A stretch of 20,000 nucleotides of DNA from an uncultured virus (IMG/VR IMGVR_UViG_3300035698_026266) (lineage: Duplodnaviria; Heunggongvirae; Uroviricota; Caudoviricetes): IMG/VR virus record IMGVR_UViG_3300035698_026266. One strand, 5' to 3'. The translations under genes and the position numbers were made by a program. Positions 2,426 through 16,183 of the stretch are shown here, in pieces. A model generated the notes under the pieces. It had not been told where the DNA came from and did not search any database. It saw nothing but the letters and a program-made list of their open reading frames with translations. Positions within the stretch are counted from its first letter, which is position 1; every line of letters starts with the position of its first letter.

Positions 2426-3178
2426 TCACTTGTGTTCAGGTATTGCTCTTGTGTAACTTTTCCAGTCGTCAGGCATTTCGATTTCATCATATAAAATTTC
2501 GCAATATTTTTCCAAAGACTCTTTGAAGTATGGTAAAGATAATGCTGCAATAGCGTCAGGTTTTCTTAGTCTAGAATTTATTTCCATTTGAATACTTGAA
2601 ATTCCAATGTAATAGTTTTTATTAAAATATTGATTTAAATTGTTTTTGTGCTTCCCTGCAAACCTAGTTTTTTCATTGGCTATTTTTGCTGACATATTGC
2701 CAAATTTATTTAAGCTATACAATAAAGCCAATTTAGAATCCTCTGTGCAGCTTAAAGAATTCCGACTTTTGCTCCCACATCCTAAAATCACGTCGGTGTT
2801 TTTAGATATTGAATTTTTTGATACTCCGTGAATGATAATTATAGTTGCAAGGGAAAGGATTTTTCTTTCGATATTTGCAATACATTTTGTAATTAAATCT
2901 AAAAATTCTTCTTTTACAACCGGCTTTACACAATGTGATATCTTGTTACAATCTGCTAAGCTTTCAGTGCAATTTACTGTGTCTGATCTTTGCCAGCCAT
3001 TATTAATGACTGCACAACAACCTAATTGTTTTGCTAATTGTTTTGCGAAAAAAGATGTATTGTAATCGTCGTAACCATGCGGAGCCACTAAAACAAGTGG
3101 TCTTTTGTAGTTCTCAACAACAATAGTTCTTTCATCTACATCATGCATGAAATCGTCTTTTGTGTAAATAGTCGTCAT
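2426..3178 (-). CDS. putative Zn-dependent amidohydrolase/peptidase (N-formylglutamate amidohydrolase / poly-gamma-glutamate hydrolase-like fold)
   Basis: Motifs VAPHG, IIHG and SIQMEI...LR; RBS AAGGA on the minus strand; only credible minus-strand gene. Confidence 0.5.
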   Translation of the reverse strand: MTTIYTKDDFMHDVDERTIVVENYKRPLVLVAPHGYDDYNTSFFAKQLAKQLGCCAVINNGWQRSDTVNCTESLADCNKISHCVKPVVKEEFLDLITKCIANIERKILSLATIIIIHGVSKNSISKNTDVILGCGSKSRNSLSCTEDSKLALLYSLNKFGNMSAKIANEKTRFAGKHKNNLNQYFNKNYYIGISSIQMEINSRLRKPDAIAALSLPYFKESLEKYCEILYDEIEMPDDWKSYTRAIPEHK

Positions 3179-3252
3179 TAGTTTAATCCTTTTTCGTAAA
3201 CAGTTTACCGCATTATAACTTTTTATTATGTATTATCCATTTTGAAATGTAT

Positions 3253-3268
3253 TGTACCTTACTTCAAG
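3253..3268 (+). promoter_or_regulatory. putative phage promoter TGTACCTTA-N6-G
   Basis: TGTACCTTA cttcaa G, upstream of ATG 3305. Confidence 0.75.
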
Positions 3269-3304
3269 TAAAATGTCTAATGGATTTAAAGCAGGGATGT
3301 AAAA

Positions 3305-4348
3305 ATGAAAAAAATAGTTTATCAAGCTGTCATTTGTGGAATAGAAGTTAAAGGTCTTTTGGTTTTGAAAAGCAATTATGACGGCTATGATCCACATGCC
3401 AATGAAAGATTTCTTAAAGGAACTCTAATTGCTTACGTTCATAAAGATCGTTTAAGTGAAGAACAAATTGATAAAATACTAAACGGCCAAAACAAAAGTT
3501 TAACTGTGCAGTGGCCGTTGAAAGAACGTAATGAAAACCCTGTTGAAAATAAAAAAGATGTTCAAAAAGGGCAAAACGACAACTTTGAACCTAGCGAGTA
3601 TCAAAAAACAATATATAATATTGTAGAAAAACAAGAAAATCATATTTTGATTAAAGCTTTAGCAGGTTCTGGTAAAACCTCTACGCTTATATGGCTTGTG
3701 CAACAGATGCATGCTAAAGGGATGACTAAAGGTAAAAAAATAGTCTATCTTGCTTTTAATAAATCCATTCAAAAAGAATTAAGTGAGAAATTAATAGGTA
3801 CTGGTGTGCCTGCGCTCACAACGCATTCTTTTGGGTTTAAAGCAATAAAAAAACATTATAATTCAGATATAAAACCTACTAATGGCAGGGTAGCAAGCGA
3901 TACGTTTTTAAAACTTGTGTGTGAATTAAAAGGGTTAAAACAAAACATAAAGGGATTGAGAGCGGCAAAAGAAACAGAAGAATATAGACTGCGATCTGCT
4001 GTTTTAGAATTAGTAGGTTATATTAAGAATTGGGCTATTCTTCCTAGTTTTGACGACTATTGGGTTTTTGACGACAAACAAAAATCGATAATAGAAGGAT
4101 TTATTTCTGATTACGAAATAGAGATAGATGAAGGTTTTACTTCTGTTGACTTGGTGGATTTTGCCTGTGATGTGGTGGCAAGAAATTTGCCATTATCAGA
4201 TTCCAATATTGTGGAAATAGACTACGACGACATGCTGTATTTGCCGTTGGCAATGAAATTGCCTTTGCCAAAATATGATCTCGTACTTACTGATGAAAGT
4301 CAAGATTTTAACGCTTGCCAAATATCCATATTACAAAAAATCATTTAA
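3305..4348 (+). CDS. UvrD/Rep SF1A helicase, N-terminal half (motifs Q, I, Ia, Ib, II)
   Basis: SEYQ, ALAGSGKT (Walker A), LAFNK, TTHSFG, DESQD (Walker B); stops 13 aa after DESQD. Confidence 0.85.
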   Translation: MKKIVYQAVICGIEVKGLLVLKSNYDGYDPHANERFLKGTLIAYVHKDRLSEEQIDKILNGQNKSLTVQWPLKERNENPVENKKDVQKGQNDNFEPSEYQKTIYNIVEKQENHILIKALAGSGKTSTLIWLVQQMHAKGMTKGKKIVYLAFNKSIQKELSEKLIGTGVPALTTHSFGFKAIKKHYNSDIKPTNGRVASDTFLKLVCELKGLKQNIKGLRAAKETEEYRLRSAVLELVGYIKNWAILPSFDDYWVFDDKQKSIIEGFISDYEIEIDEGFTSVDLVDFACDVVARNLPLSDSNIVEIDYDDMLYLPLAMKLPLPKYDLVLTDESQDFNACQISILQKII

Positions 4349-4355
4349 AAAAGAC

Positions 4356-4371
4356 TGTACCTTAGAAATCG
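4356..4371 (+). promoter_or_regulatory. putative phage promoter inside the helicase split
   Basis: TGTACCTTA gaaatc G in the 65-nt gap between the helicase halves; RBS AGGA ahead of ATG 4414. Confidence 0.75.
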
Positions 4372-4413
4372 AACATTGTGTTAGAAAATTTCACAAAGAT
4401 ATAGGATGAAAAA

Positions 4414-5427
4414 ATGAGCGGCAGAATAATAGTAGTTGGCGATCCACGTCAGGCTTTATACCGTTTTCGTGGTGCTGACGCAAAAGCTTTTGAACGTATA
4501 GAAGAAATGTTTTCTAAAGATAAAAGAGGTATCGTAACTTGTGAATTACCAATAAATTATCGTTGTTCTAAAAAGATAATTAACCATTCAAAACTTTGGG
4601 TAAAAGAGTTGCAGGGTTTCAAAAAAGAAGAAGGAATAGTTGATGAAATTTATTACAATGAATCTTTACAAAGAGCAAATAATGACAATGTTGATATTGG
4701 TCTAAAAGATGGCTGTTTAGGAGAAAGTCGAGTATTAGAAAACGCTACGTTTGCTTTTTTGTGCAGAATAAACGTGTCTTTAGTTATAACAGCATACAGA
4801 TTAATGGGACTAAAAAAGAAAGTTTGCATTATAGGGCAAAGCCAATTTGGAACCCCATTAGTTAATTTAATTGAAAAGTTATGTTATCCTAAAAATAAAG
4901 TTCTTCATACAAACAGGATTAGCGATAGAATAGATGCGTCTGGAAGCATTGTTGAAGAAGGGCTTTTAACAAGATTAAGGTCTGATTTTAGGATTCAAAG
5001 CGAAAAACTAAAATCAGATGGTTTTGAAAGGAAATTGGAGTCTTTGCAGCAAAACGTTGAATGTATAGAAGTCATTGCGTTAAACGCAAAAGATGATAAA
5101 GTAACTACAGTTTTAGAAGACATTGAGGAATTGTTTACAGAAGAACCTGAACCCGGCGTCATAACTTTAAGCACGATTCACAAATCTAAAGGATTGGAAT
5201 GGGATGTCGTTTTTATTCTTAGGCCAGATTTAATGCCACATCCCAAAGCAAAAAGTTGTGAGGAACTAGAACAAGAAAAAAATGCTCAATATGTAGCAGC
5301 GACTAGAGCTAAAAACAGATTGTATTATGTTAAGAATTGGCCGGGTGAAAACTTTTCGTATTCTAGACCTGTTAGCGAGTACGAAAAACCCGAAACAATC
5401 AGCAAAGAGAGCGACATTAAAGATTAG
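4414..5427 (+). CDS. UvrD/Rep SF1A helicase, C-terminal half (motifs III-VI)
   Basis: VGDPRQALYRFRGA (III), NYRC, FLCRIN, STIHKSKGLEW (V), YVAATRAK (VI). Confidence 0.85.
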   Translation: MSGRIIVVGDPRQALYRFRGADAKAFERIEEMFSKDKRGIVTCELPINYRCSKKIINHSKLWVKELQGFKKEEGIVDEIYYNESLQRANNDNVDIGLKDGCLGESRVLENATFAFLCRINVSLVITAYRLMGLKKKVCIIGQSQFGTPLVNLIEKLCYPKNKVLHTNRISDRIDASGSIVEEGLLTRLRSDFRIQSEKLKSDGFERKLESLQQNVECIEVIALNAKDDKVTTVLEDIEELFTEEPEPGVITLSTIHKSKGLEWDVVFILRPDLMPHPKAKSCEELEQEKNAQYVAATRAKNRLYYVKNWPGENFSYSRPVSEYEKPETISKESDIKD

Positions 5428-5458
5428 AATTTATTGTACTAAAAAATATTTGGTTTTG

Positions 5459-5494
5459 CATGAAAAAGCGCTTGTCAACAAGCGTTTTTTCATG
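5459..5494. terminator. near-perfect palindrome, probable terminator
   Basis: CATGAAAAAGCGCTTGT-CA-ACAAGCGTTTTTTCATG (one G-T pair) between the helicase and sigma genes. Confidence 0.6.
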
Positions 5495-5520
5495 TAATTA
5501 GAGTGTGTTCTAAAATCTGT

Positions 5521-5536
5521 TGTACCTTATTGGATG
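5521..5536 (+). promoter_or_regulatory. putative phage promoter of the sigma gene
   Basis: AAAATCTGT TGTACCTTA ttggat G; RBS AAGGA before ATG 5567. Confidence 0.75.
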
Positions 5537-5566
5537 TAAGCAACTCATTTTTGAAAGGAATTTAAT

Positions 5567-6547
5567 ATGTACGTTAAGCATGTTGGTTTGACAAAAGAAC
5601 GAAATCGTGAACTTGCAGCATTGATGCTTGATGCCAATGGTGTTCTATTGGACAAGATCGCAAATTCAAAAGCAAAAATCAATCGTAGTCAATTCAGAAT
5701 TGAATTGTTTAAAATTTTGGATGCCAAAGGAATTAATTCAAAAAATGGCGAAAAAGTCTCTTTGCATGGAGTTTCTTTTTCCGCAAAACAAACCGTTGTT
5801 ATTTCTGCTGTAAGGGAAGTAGAGTTTGATATTATTTCTAATTTTTCAAGATTGCTTGAAAAGCATTCACGAAGATTTGCACAAATGCATCATAAAATGA
5901 ATGGTGTTTTGGAGGTAGAAGATTTCTATGCTGAATCTTATGCCACTGCTGTTGATTGTGTTTATGGGTACAACAATTCAAATGTTAAATTTATTACTTA
6001 TCTTACAATTAGCATTGTCAGAAAGTGTTTGTTGGTCATTAATGAAAACAGACCTTTCTCTCATTATACCAACAATGAATTGAACTTGTCTAGAAAATAT
6101 TACTTGGCAGTAGAAGAAGAAAAACAAAAACAAGGTCGCAATGTGTCTTTTGATGAAGTTGTAAAAATGATGGATTTGTCAAAAGACGAAATAAGTGCAG
6201 TTGAAAAGATGCTTATTAAAATTTCTTCTGGTTCTGGAAACAAGAATGAAAACGAAGAAACATCAGACTATAGTTCTTTAAGAAAAATATCAAAAGAAGA
6301 TTTGAATTTTTCACGTTTTGAAGTAGACGAAAAAGAGGCTATAGAACGTGCTTGGAACAAGATGTCAGAATGGGAACAGGCAGTTTTGGAAGCGTATTTG
6401 GACGCCCCTTTCAAAAATAATGGTTGGAAGACGGAAGTAGCTTCTAAACACATTAATCCTTCAACTGGCAAGATTTACAGTAAAGCAGCACCTTCTTTAG
6501 CGATGGATCGTATTAAAAACAAAATCAAAAAAGAAATGGTTGCTTGA
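5567..6547 (+). CDS. divergent sigma70-family RNA polymerase sigma factor
   Basis: Region 2-like NFSRLL...LEVEDFYAE...KFITYLTISI; region 3-like KQGRNVSFDEVVKMMDLSKDEI; region 4-like AWNKMSEWEQAVL...KTEVA...RIKNKIKK. Confidence 0.75.
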   Translation: MYVKHVGLTKERNRELAALMLDANGVLLDKIANSKAKINRSQFRIELFKILDAKGINSKNGEKVSLHGVSFSAKQTVVISAVREVEFDIISNFSRLLEKHSRRFAQMHHKMNGVLEVEDFYAESYATAVDCVYGYNNSNVKFITYLTISIVRKCLLVINENRPFSHYTNNELNLSRKYYLAVEEEKQKQGRNVSFDEVVKMMDLSKDEISAVEKMLIKISSGSGNKNENEETSDYSSLRKISKEDLNFSRFEVDEKEAIERAWNKMSEWEQAVLEAYLDAPFKNNGWKTEVASKHINPSTGKIYSKAAPSLAMDRIKNKIKKEMVA

Positions 6548-9110: not shown

Positions 9111-9118
9111 TTTTCTGT

Positions 9119-12599: not shown

Positions 12600-12612
12600 G
12601 GAACCCTTTACT

Positions 12613-12685
12613 GCTCTCTTAGCTCAGCGGTCAGAGCGGGCGGCTCATAACCGCTTGGTCGCAGGTTCGAATCCTGCAGGGAGCA
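12613..12685 (+). tRNA. tRNA with CAU anticodon, most likely tRNA-Ile2 (lysidine-modified, reads AUA); CCA not encoded
   Basis: Full cloverleaf: GCTCTCT/AGGGAGC acceptor, GCTC/GAGC D arm, GGCGG-CTCATAA-CCGCT anticodon arm, GCAGG-TTCGAAT-CCTGC T arm, A73. C4-G69 and overall similarity to E. coli ileX; no initiator features. Confidence 0.9.
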
Positions 12686-12693
12686 TTTTCTTG

Positions 12694-13756: not shown

Positions 13757-16183
13757 ATGAAAATGGATTCATCTAAAGGCGATTTGGAAACTAACATCAA
13801 AAAGGGAAAAAAGTTTTCAATTGCTGACAACCCTCTAGCATTTAAAATTCTTTCATCTGGCATTTATTCTAATAAGATTCAAGCAATTATTAGAGAATTG
13901 TGTACAAATGCCTTTGACAGTCACGTTATGGCGAATAATGCAAAGCCTTTTGTTGTAGGCTTGCCAGATATTTACAAGCCGGTTTTTTACGTTCAAGACT
14001 TTGGCGTTGGTCTTTCACCAGATCAAGTTGAAAACATTTTCACTACTTATTTTGAGTCTAACAAAAGAGACTCGGATGAAGTAGATGGGTGTCTAGGATT
14101 GGGTAGCAAGTCTCCACTGTGCTACACTGACAATTTTAATGTAGAAACAGTTTGGGAAGAAAAGAAATATAACTATCTTGTTTATCTTGATGAAAACAAT
14201 GAACCTTCTATTACGGAACCTGTTGTAAGTCCTGCCGAAGATGGCGAAGTCACAGGTGTCAGAATTTCAATTGCCGTTAAAAACGATGATTTCTTTAGCT
14301 TTAGAGATGTTGCATCTAAAGTTTTGTCTTGGTTTAAAAAAGGCAGTTTCGTAGTTGCTGGAGAAAACGAATTATTTTTGGCAAAAAAAGAATACAAATT
14401 CAAAAGTGAATCATATGGGATTCATGGCAAACATTACGGATATTCAGAAGTTGTTATGGGCAATGTTGCTTATCCTTTTACATGGTCAGAATTTAATGAA
14501 CATATTACTTATGCCCGTATTTTTCCTAAAGACGTTGAAGGGCAAGTAGATGTTGATTTTAATGACGACCAAAGCGTATTGAATTTTTATGATAAAGAAA
14601 AGTCTGGAAAATATTTCAAAATCAAAAAACGATTGCAGGCTATTGTTGAAATGGGGATCACTCTTTGGGTGGATCGTGGACAAGTTTCCATGTCTGTTTC
14701 TCGTGAAAAGCTAGAATATAGTCCGAAAACGATTCGAGTAATCACAAGCTTGATTAGTAGTGTAGCTGCCACGATGGTTGAGGATGTCCAGAAAAAGATT
14801 GATGATTCTTCCAATATTTGGGAAGCACGCAGAATTATTTGGGAATTGTTAAGTTATAAGAATGGTCGTAATCCTTTTTTGCAAATTTTAAACAGTTTTG
14901 ACAAAGAAAGCACACAGTTTGCTTATAAAGGCAAAAACCTTTATGGTGGTGGAATTTCTTTGTGGGTGCCACTTGATCTAAAAAACGAAGAAGAAAAAAA
15001 GGGAATGGTGGAGGAAGATGACGACAGTGGATTTGAAATTGACAACACTGGCTCTCCTGTTGAGAAGTATCATGCAAAATTGTTTTCTGCTTTCCATACA
15101 AAACAGGTTGCAAAATGCACCACAGCGTATTGGAAAGAAGCACGTCGATCTAGTTCACCTAATAAATTTGAAAAAGTCACTCATACGAAGTACATTAGTC
15201 CAGAAGAAAACTCGTATTATTTTATCAAAGATTCCAACCATGCCGTTTACAGTAAAATAAAAAATTGGTCTGAAAGTCTTGAAGACAAAATGCACTCCGT
15301 TTTTTATATTTTATATCCTTTTTCGGATGATCCTGACGATGTGGCTTGTTTTGAAGAATGGATTAAAGACAATGAATTTCCTAATGTCATTAAATTAAGT
15401 GAATTAAAAACGCCTTCAATGGCTAAAGACGGACGTAGAAAGCGTGTCCCATCTAAAGTTTTGGGATGGGCGAATAAGGAAGGCCATAGTGAAAACCAAA
15501 ATCTTTTTTGGGAAGATACCACTGTTGATTTAAACGACGAAAATACATCTGGAGTCTATGTCGAGGTCAAGCATTATTCTTGGAAAATGAAAGATGATAG
15601 TAGTTATTCTTCCCCACACTCATTAAGCACTTTGTTGAAAGCTATGGGCACTCATTTTAATGAGCGTTTGATCGGCGTAAGAAAGACAGCAGTTAAAAAG
15701 TTTGCTAAATCTCCAAACTGGATTAGACTAGACGAATGGATTGACAAAAATTTCAAATACACTGGTCAGGAATTGGAAGATATTGGATATTATGAAGCGT
15801 ATAGAAATCATAGGCATTTGATTTTCGAAGCGGTCCATAAGGATTTTCAAAGCTTTAAAAACTATGAATTCAATGACAATTCGCCATTTAAAGAAATGTT
15901 AAACGTTTTGACGTTTCTGGAGACGGTGAATTCAAACAAATTTAGCTTTTCAAATTATTCATTATTGAATAACTTGAAGCACCATTTGGGAATTACTGTT
16001 CCAAATAAAAGCAAAGAAATTGAAGATAGTATTAAAAAAGCAAATGATTTGCTGGCCAATTATCCACTATTGGTGAACATGTATTCAAGTTACAGTGAAA
16101 AAAGTATCAAAAACATTGTTGAATATGTGCAATTAAAAGACCAAAAGGAAGTACAATCTGAAAAAGAAAAGAATGCAGCCTGA
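13757..16183 (+). CDS. rIIA: rIIA-like protein with N-terminal GHKL/HATPase domain
   Basis: AFKILSSGIYSNKIQAIIRELCTNAFDSH, DFGVGLS, FESNKRDS, GCLGLGSKSP, VVMGNVAYP, SVSREKL. Confidence 0.8.
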   Translation: MKMDSSKGDLETNIKKGKKFSIADNPLAFKILSSGIYSNKIQAIIRELCTNAFDSHVMANNAKPFVVGLPDIYKPVFYVQDFGVGLSPDQVENIFTTYFESNKRDSDEVDGCLGLGSKSPLCYTDNFNVETVWEEKKYNYLVYLDENNEPSITEPVVSPAEDGEVTGVRISIAVKNDDFFSFRDVASKVLSWFKKGSFVVAGENELFLAKKEYKFKSESYGIHGKHYGYSEVVMGNVAYPFTWSEFNEHITYARIFPKDVEGQVDVDFNDDQSVLNFYDKEKSGKYFKIKKRLQAIVEMGITLWVDRGQVSMSVSREKLEYSPKTIRVITSLISSVAATMVEDVQKKIDDSSNIWEARRIIWELLSYKNGRNPFLQILNSFDKESTQFAYKGKNLYGGGISLWVPLDLKNEEEKKGMVEEDDDSGFEIDNTGSPVEKYHAKLFSAFHTKQVAKCTTAYWKEARRSSSPNKFEKVTHTKYISPEENSYYFIKDSNHAVYSKIKNWSESLEDKMHSVFYILYPFSDDPDDVACFEEWIKDNEFPNVIKLSELKTPSMAKDGRRKRVPSKVLGWANKEGHSENQNLFWEDTTVDLNDENTSGVYVEVKHYSWKMKDDSSYSSPHSLSTLLKAMGTHFNERLIGVRKTAVKKFAKSPNWIRLDEWIDKNFKYTGQELEDIGYYEAYRNHRHLIFEAVHKDFQSFKNYEFNDNSPFKEMLNVLTFLETVNSNKFSFSNYSLLNNLKHHLGITVPNKSKEIEDSIKKANDLLANYPLLVNMYSSYSEKSIKNIVEYVQLKDQKEVQSEKEKNAA

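Follow-up and report, generated by a model that had tools for sequence, protein, structure and literature searches.

We analyzed a stretch of 20,000 nucleotides (nt), hereafter the window, from an uncultured virus of the class Caudoviricetes (IMG/VR record IMGVR_UViG_3300035698_026266). Two neighboring open reading frames (ORFs) between positions 3305 and 5427 of the window are the N- and C-terminal halves of one superfamily 1A (SF1A) UvrD-like helicase, on the basis of motifs, profiles and fold. A prediction made earlier from the sequence (the original prediction) had described a UvrD/Rep helicase split between motifs II and III by a 65-nt out-of-frame gap, and had argued for a functional two-chain enzyme rather than a decaying pseudogene. 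The ORF coordinates and the Pfam and PHROG matches agree with the first part of this description. The second part is favored by a conserved break, intact motifs, the ratio of nonsynonymous to synonymous substitution rates (dN/dS), fused relatives and a structural model of the pair. We consider it highly probable that the halves make a working two-chain helicase whose break is ancient and maintained. We infer the helicase activity from sequence and the physical complex from modeling.

We propose that the halves would be the two chains of a heterodimeric SF1A (UvrD/PcrA/Rep-type) helicase of an AT-rich uncultured phage. The cut would fall within RecA-like domain 1A, where a short loop leads from the helix after motif II (DExQD) into the motif III beta-strand (GDxxQ). 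The N-half would supply Walker A and Walker B (motifs I and II) and domain 1B, and the C-half would supply motifs III to VI, the conserved arginines and domains 2A and 2B. Each half would be translated from its own start codon and its own ribosome-binding site, after which two strands of the C-half (residues ~4-8 and ~41-45) would slot into the sheet of domain 1A beside the strands of motifs I and II. This strand insertion would rebuild the ATP site at the 1A/2A interface, and neither half would be active alone.

The two half-genes and their split and fused relatives

The N-half (ORF1) lies at 3305..4348 on the plus strand and encodes 347 amino acids (aa), ending ...TDESQDFNACQISILQKII before the stop codon. 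It is made up of a beta-rich N-terminal domain (residues ~1-70), motif I AGSGKT (within AGSGKTST), domain 1B and motif II TDESQDF, and its C-terminal end is the helix and loop past motif II. The C-half (ORF2) lies at 4414..5427 on the plus strand and encodes 337 aa starting MSGRIIVVGDPRQ. It comprises domains 2A and 2B and carries VVGDPRQALYRFRGA, LPINYRC, STIHKSKGLEWD and YVAATRA, which we take to be motifs III to VI with their conserved arginines (VVGDPRQALYRFRGA being motif III and LPINYRC motif IV). An intergenic gap of 65 nt (4349..4413, plus strand) separates the halves, which are in different frames. The single-polypeptide motor core that is a feature of SF1A helicases is replaced here by two ORFs.

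The two halves divide the known helicase profiles between them. ORF1 matches Pfam PF00580 over profile positions 7-235 of 271, and ORF2 matches the last 30 positions (241-270) together with UvrD_C (PF13361); the scores are 53 bits for PF00580 against a cut-off of 23 and 63.6 bits for PF13361 against a cut-off of 25.6. Both halves also fall into one PHROG helicase family, phrog_1967, at positions 133-385 and 391-679. Because the Pfam and PHROG positions are contiguous over the break, essentially zero residues are missing, in line with the original statement that almost none are lost there.

A homolog search for fused versus split forms had been recommended by the original prediction, and it returned dozens of relatives split at the same point and 29 that are fused. 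For the N-half, ORF1 was compared with 5.8 billion proteins in the size range of 190-608 aa, and the 41 top hits lie at E <= 5e-40 and 33-55% identity. Of these, 40 are 334-386 aa long; the other (P0038, 564 aa) is a fused form truncated at a contig end. Among 44 distinct stand-alone N-halves, 43 end 2-14 residues past a conserved LExL helix that follows motif II, and the 44th (P0041) is not alignable at the break region. The C-half search, made with ORF2, yielded 36 hits with E <= 1e-40, excluding the window's own protein. Stand-alone C-halves of 346-464 aa account for 31 of them (45-58% identity), the remaining five being two fused fragments, one protein that begins inside an intein and two short fragments. 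Most stand-alone C-halves begin M-(G/S/A)-(G/A)-R-x-I-V-V-G-D, 2-3 residues ahead of a conserved arginine.

All the catalytic motifs had been judged intact from the sequence of the window, and they are near-invariant over both sets of halves. Motif I keeps K124 and T127 without variation in the N-halves, where D330, E331, Q333 and D334 of motif II are at least 90% conserved (alignment A1). In the C-halves D10, R19, R50, T297 and R298 are invariant (alignment A3). The nearest relatives of the window's proteins are ~55-58% identical to them. Scans of IMG/VR with a single sequence of either half gave zero relatives, and an alignment-based scan of IMG/VR found two, L001 and L002. Some members of the clade are metagenomic phages on contigs of 138-464 kb. 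The helicases of cultured phages are fused only and at most ~33% identical, and cellular genomes held no close relative (best 28-29% identity over the core).

The fused forms show what the undivided protein looks like at this point. A search of longer proteins gave 28 full-length fused relatives (653-1097 aa, 34-48% identity to ORF1), to which P0038 adds the 29th. Among the 22 best hits of a word-free search with ORF2 against 1.8 billion representatives, 15 are full-length fused proteins (666-1073 aa), four are C-halves starting at residue 1-3 and three are fragments. The fused forms cross the junction uninterrupted through a linker of 3-5 residues, e.g. ...LLGKLNQGGARIVSVGD, and since they are continuous over the junction, no residues have been lost in the split form.

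Three fused relatives (P0272, P0138 and P0303) carry inteins of ~370 residues (Pfam Intein_splicing/Hint) inside motif III (GDENQ / C...HN / CIYRFRGA), ~11 residues downstream of the split point, and this small region takes two kinds of interruption. We rejected an intein at the break, as the inteins of these three proteins sit in motif III and not at the break itself.

Quick trees were built from the N-half columns (80 rows, leaving out P0041 and the duplicate P0033) and from the C-half columns (74 rows). In both trees the outgroups and several basal clades are fused and one large clade is mostly split, with 41 split to 9 fused members in the N tree; in the C tree the corresponding numbers are 35 and 10. 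Two fused subclades (P0271/P0127/P0129/P0286 and P0273/P0123) are nested in both. The best trees need 5-6 state changes, and the starred branches force at least two changes in the N tree and at least one in the C tree. An approximately unbiased (AU) test of the N-half with all split forms as one clade gave p 0.039 against such a clade, which is borderline. The most economical history is one old fission followed by some re-fusions. These sequence comparisons indicate that the split arose in the ancestor of the large metagenomic-phage clade and predates this phage.

Proposed assembly, translation and maintenance of the two chains

Profile alignment to the solved UvrD, PcrA and Rep places C-half residues 3-68 on E. 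coli UvrD 241-302. The N-half modeled alone with AlphaFold has a predicted local distance difference test (pLDDT) of 92, and Foldseek matched this model to the 1A/1B part of PcrA, UvrD1, UvrD, Rep and AdnB with 26 hits at E <= 0.001; the matches to PcrA, UvrD, Rep and AdnB, with 2pjr, 9dci, 2is6 and 1uaa among the hits, have a probability of 1.0. The original prediction had suggested modeling the pair with AlphaFold-Multimer. A complex prediction from the two family alignments scored 0.79 compared to 0.48 for the best control, on a scale where the mark is reached by 116 of 157 solved complexes and by 2 of 215 mismatched pairs. Three runs share at least 90% of the contacts, with a partner pLDDT of at least 82.

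In the model of the complex, N-half residues 113-118 (the strand ahead of Walker A) and 323-328 (the strand of motif II) are contacted by residues 1-14 and 38-51 of the C-half. When the N-half is modeled alone, the stretch 110-123 is not assigned as a strand, which fits a strand in need of its partner. These models support the donation of two strands by the C-half to the domain 1A sheet of the N-half.

We looked at selection through dN/dS, another check put forward with the original prediction, which was measurable in relatives only and came to 0.11-0.20 there. The value for the N-half is 0.11 between L037 and L038 (synonymous rate, dS, 0.16) and 0.15 over 75 codons between L001 and L057; for the C-half of the latter pair it is 0.20 (dS 0.92, near saturation). 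Such values indicate that the split relatives are under purifying selection.

Several points weigh against a working two-chain helicase of old and single origin in this phage. The dN/dS values are those of split relatives and not of the window, and one of the comparisons is close to saturation. All 34 C-half relatives in alignment A3, as well as the fused forms shown, end in an acidic DDGEPF tail (F-x-DDGEPF type), and the window's C-half is unique in being without it, ending ...SKESDIKD (5395-5427); no remnant of DDGEPF was seen in the window's other frame. The absence of the tail could amount to some loss of function in this phage. This tail resembles the C-terminal tips of single-stranded DNA-binding (SSB) proteins, a likeness that is a lead only. 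Nine or ten fused forms nest in the split clade, and there is no single clean event. Finally, the complex is a model, a passing score is common for split halves of a known fold, and the pass may reflect likeness to the solved single-chain UvrD, PcrA and Rep.

The loss of the tail would also suit halves that are no longer partners and that act alone or with other proteins (sub-functionalization), with, for instance, the N-half binding ATP and the C-half binding DNA in separate roles. The promoter-like motif and ribosome-binding site that each half has of its own fit this explanation too, as do the 1.5-2 kb and the genes that lie between the halves of L002 and L038. We nevertheless find such a separation of roles improbable. 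The catalytic site of SF1 helicases (PcrA, UvrD and Rep) uses motifs from both halves, and the motifs of both halves all stay invariant. The halves are moreover linked on all five loci that cover both, and the modeled interface is a strand insertion into one sheet. We retain the two-chain helicase as the better explanation.

How the halves are translated can be read from the loci on which both are found. On 5 of 5 DNA loci covering both (the window, L001, L002, L038 and L057) the halves are adjacent or near. The distance between them is 65 nt in the window and 74 nt in L057; in L001 it is 12 nt, or 84 nt with the second ATG as start. It reaches 1.5 kb, including a DUF3846 gene, in L002 (a 436-kb contig) and ~2.0 kb, with at least four ORFs, in L038. 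The contig of L037 stops ahead of its C-half. A further 13 N/C pairs presumably sit on a shared contig, their longest contigs being equal in size. Because kilobases and genes intervene in relatives, each half is translated on its own, and the two reading frames are independent.

It is conceivable that adjacent halves in different frames, only 65 nt apart, are restored to a single chain by a programmed frameshift, a hop of the T4 gene 60 type, a small intron or a split intein, the more so as relatives carry real inteins nearby in motif III. The frame of ORF2 is interrupted by two stops within the gap, the remaining frame finishes out of phase, and 65 nt is too short for a group I or group II intron. 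No match to Rfam at the gathering score was obtained in the window, L001, L002, L037, L038 or L057, gaps included. Neither broken end carries intein residues, and the two ends meet just where the fused proteins are continuous. The C-half starts with an ordinary Shine-Dalgarno (SD) sequence and ATG, as other genes do. Between the halves of the relatives L002 and L038 lie 1.5-2 kb of protein-coding genes. We regard frameshifting, hopping, splicing and trans-splicing as very unlikely and give a restored single chain hardly any credence.

The genes that lie between the halves differ among relatives. L037 (3114-3419) and L038 (3093-3395) encode a protein of 100 aa that matches a winged-helix family weakly (PF14947, E 0.003), and also a protein of 371/382 aa without a family match. 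In L002 a DUF3846 protein is encoded at 5688-6041, and the further ORFs of this insert are without a family match.

A stop codon and a frame change within a normally continuous domain, together with the missing DDGEPF tail, are what a recently broken, decaying pseudogene would look like in this phage. Recent decay is difficult to reconcile with a break that recurs in 43 of 44 N-halves and in 31 C-halves, down to 33-45% identity. Both ORFs of the window are also full length with their motifs intact, and the split relatives are under purifying selection. We judge a pseudogene to be very improbable.

The check for an assembly artefact that came with the original prediction was answered by Logan contigs from four of four salt-lake metagenome runs, which span 4278-4518 with 0 differences and 0 gaps, at a depth that is low (~4x word depth) and with one run that may be the source sample. 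Conservation of the break in unrelated assemblies is a stronger argument than these bridging contigs, and with both in hand an assembly or sequencing artefact has a negligible chance of explaining the break.

Repeated motifs and the seam between the halves

The original prediction had placed a perfect copy of a promoter motif and a ribosome-binding site in the gap, and both are there, the promoter role being putative. A perfect core copy of the repeat TGTACCTTA lies at 4356..4364 on the plus strand, 49 nt before the ATG of the C-half, and a Shine-Dalgarno-like AGGA lies at 4403..4406 on the plus strand, 7 nt before the same ATG. Another copy of the repeat, at 3253..3261 on the plus strand, is found 43 nt upstream of the start codon of the N-half. 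The window holds 9 perfect and 6 one-mismatch copies of TGTACCTTA, a total of 15 compared to 3.7 expected, and 15 or more were reached in 0 of 200 shuffles. All but one of the 15 are on the gene strand. The copies are located in intergenic spacers, 18-61 nt ahead of start codons, and share the wider consensus AAAATCTnnTGTACCTTA, the upstream part of which is matched only partly by the copy in the gap. As most spacers of the window longer than 40 nt contain the motif, the gap copy is typical of the genome and not specific to the helicase.

Copies of TGTACCTTA are found at 3253, 4356, 5521, 6559, 9119, 11748, 12756 and 19547, in addition to the one-mismatch ones. The consensus AAAATCTnnTGTACCTTA precedes most plus-strand genes, with G(T/A)A(A/T)C ~6 nt later, and it resembles a promoter specific to this phage. 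For the ORFs at 9118, 11747 and 16598, which were called with a TTG start, the true start is probably an ATG downstream of the motif. A scan for sigma-70-type promoters over 3000-5700 gave 13 sites compared to 10.4 expected, too small a difference to be informative.

Repeated elements are also found ahead of the C-half in relatives. In L038 the sequence ATAAGGTYTACTT occurs in four perfect plus-strand copies within 6 kb (five at up to 2 mismatches, compared to 0.33 expected), and one copy lies 52 nt ahead of the C-half. In L001 the motif GAACCTTT-N12-GTGTGTATAAG occurs three times, once before the N-half and once in the gap, and the gap of L057 has the same bipartite motif. The motif of the window bears a loose resemblance only to those of L038 and L001, in the case of L038 on the opposite strand. 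A promoter-like element that is repeated in its own lineage appears before the C-half in three lineages, and these motifs are putative promoters.

No terminator-like site was found in the gap between the halves. A GC-rich palindromic hairpin with T/A runs at its flanks lies at 5469..5484, ~40 nt past the stop codon of the C-half. It was called on the minus strand, and the plus strand reads the same stem followed by TTTTTT. This terminator-like hairpin is likely the end of the helicase transcription unit.

The similarity of the leaders of the two halves and the AAAAAAT on either side of the break had been taken, in the original prediction, as signs that a promoter/ribosome-binding-site cassette inserted here and created the split. 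The leaders GGATGTAAAAATG and GGATGAAAAAATG are indeed identical at 12 of 13 bases. The similarity is that of an ordinary Shine-Dalgarno sequence, an A-rich spacer and an ATG, which are also present at other genes of the window, and the leader pattern at up to 2 mismatches has 6 hits compared to 4.3 expected. AAAAAAT is found at 4335 and 4409 and has 37 copies in the window compared to ~51 expected; as it is not enriched, we rejected a target-site duplication. The cassette-insertion origin is likewise not supported for this phage, given that the split is common to a large clade with wholly different gaps, that AAAAAAT is not enriched and that the leaders are ordinary.

We propose that the seam would later have gained different contents according to lineage, either promoter-like motifs or one to several genes. 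A bolder hypothesis is that the loop between motifs II and III is a structural seam that has been cut and re-joined more than once and that, when open, takes in promoters and small genes. This hypothesis is raised because fused clades nest in the split clade, the AU test is borderline and lineage-specific motifs precede the C-half in three lineages. We hold it tentatively and think it rather unlikely. If true, each half could have a phage promoter of its own for transcription, and the helicase would be active only at times when both chains are present.

Comparison with known systems and other features of the window

UvrD, PcrA and Rep are single chains (PDB 2is1, 3pjr and 1uaa) that share all seven helicase motifs and PF00580/PF13361 with the helicase of the window. 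The latter differs in being two polypeptides cut in domain 1A. Its family has in addition an extra beta-rich N-terminal domain of ~70 residues, and most members carry the acidic DDGEPF C-terminal tail. In the N-half this N-terminal domain (residues 1-70, 3305-3520) is modeled as five strands and one helix with a pLDDT of ~95, ahead of the helicase core. Split and fused family members alike retain this domain, and the cellular-genome helicases found are without it.

Phage enzymes in pieces are well known, and T4 alone has UvsW/UvsW.1 and the topoisomerase gp39/gp60. Split RNA polymerase beta/beta' and split Pol III alpha are described for jumbo phages in the accessible part of a review (PMC7824862), which mentions a UvrD-type helicase and, in that part, no split of it. 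The T4 and jumbo-phage cases resemble the present one in being replication or transcription enzymes in pieces with fused counterparts elsewhere; none is known to be an SF1A helicase with its break between motifs II and III.

In Aeromonas phage Aeh1 the ribonucleotide reductase gene nrdA is split by the homing endonuclease gene mobE, and mobile-element-derived interaction domains assemble the NrdA pieces, according to the accessible part of that report (PMC3045599). The likeness lies in an essential phage DNA-metabolism enzyme encoded in two genes, the Aeh1 pieces reassembling into a working enzyme. Unlike nrdA/mobE as described there, the stretches between the helicase halves gave no endonuclease domain in any of 5 loci (the small ORFs of L038 being scanned in part), and the ends of the halves are without extra residues. 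A full-text literature search did not turn up a UvrD-type core with a division at the point between motifs II and III.

If the chains assemble as modeled, the helicase would represent a natural, long-lived RecA-like motor domain built in trans from two polypeptides by strand insertion. The break marks a permissive split site for the engineering of SF1 helicases, for instance in fragment-complementation designs. Helicase genes that seem 'broken' in phage metagenomes can be real two-gene enzymes, and annotators should pair them and not discard them. A family with both fused and split members also allows a direct comparison of gene fission and fusion and of their regulatory consequences.

With a GC content of 33% the window is AT-rich, and it has the look of phage DNA. 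Its genes include those for rIIA-like and rIIB-like proteins, a GroES-like protein, a clamp-loader-like AAA ATPase and methyltransferases of DNA and other types (Pfam/PHROGs). Comparison of 3200-5500 by blastn with 50,697 phage records gave zero nucleotide-level matches.

A tRNA-Met gene (anticodon CAT) is located at 12612-12686, between the GroES-like gene and the rIIB-like gene. A 292-aa protein encoded at 12801-13679 matches only the C-terminal positions 820-1042 of 1055 of PHROG 609 'RIIB'. Just downstream, at 13757-16183, lies the gene for an rIIA-like protein of 808 aa, the N-terminus of which matches positions 24-255 of the same PHROG 609. This rII pair may be another unusual gene arrangement. 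Lastly, a metagenome contig of 2,369 bp (L036) is 100% identical to residues 1-177 of the window's N-half and ends within the gene. This identity places the same phage in another assembly record.

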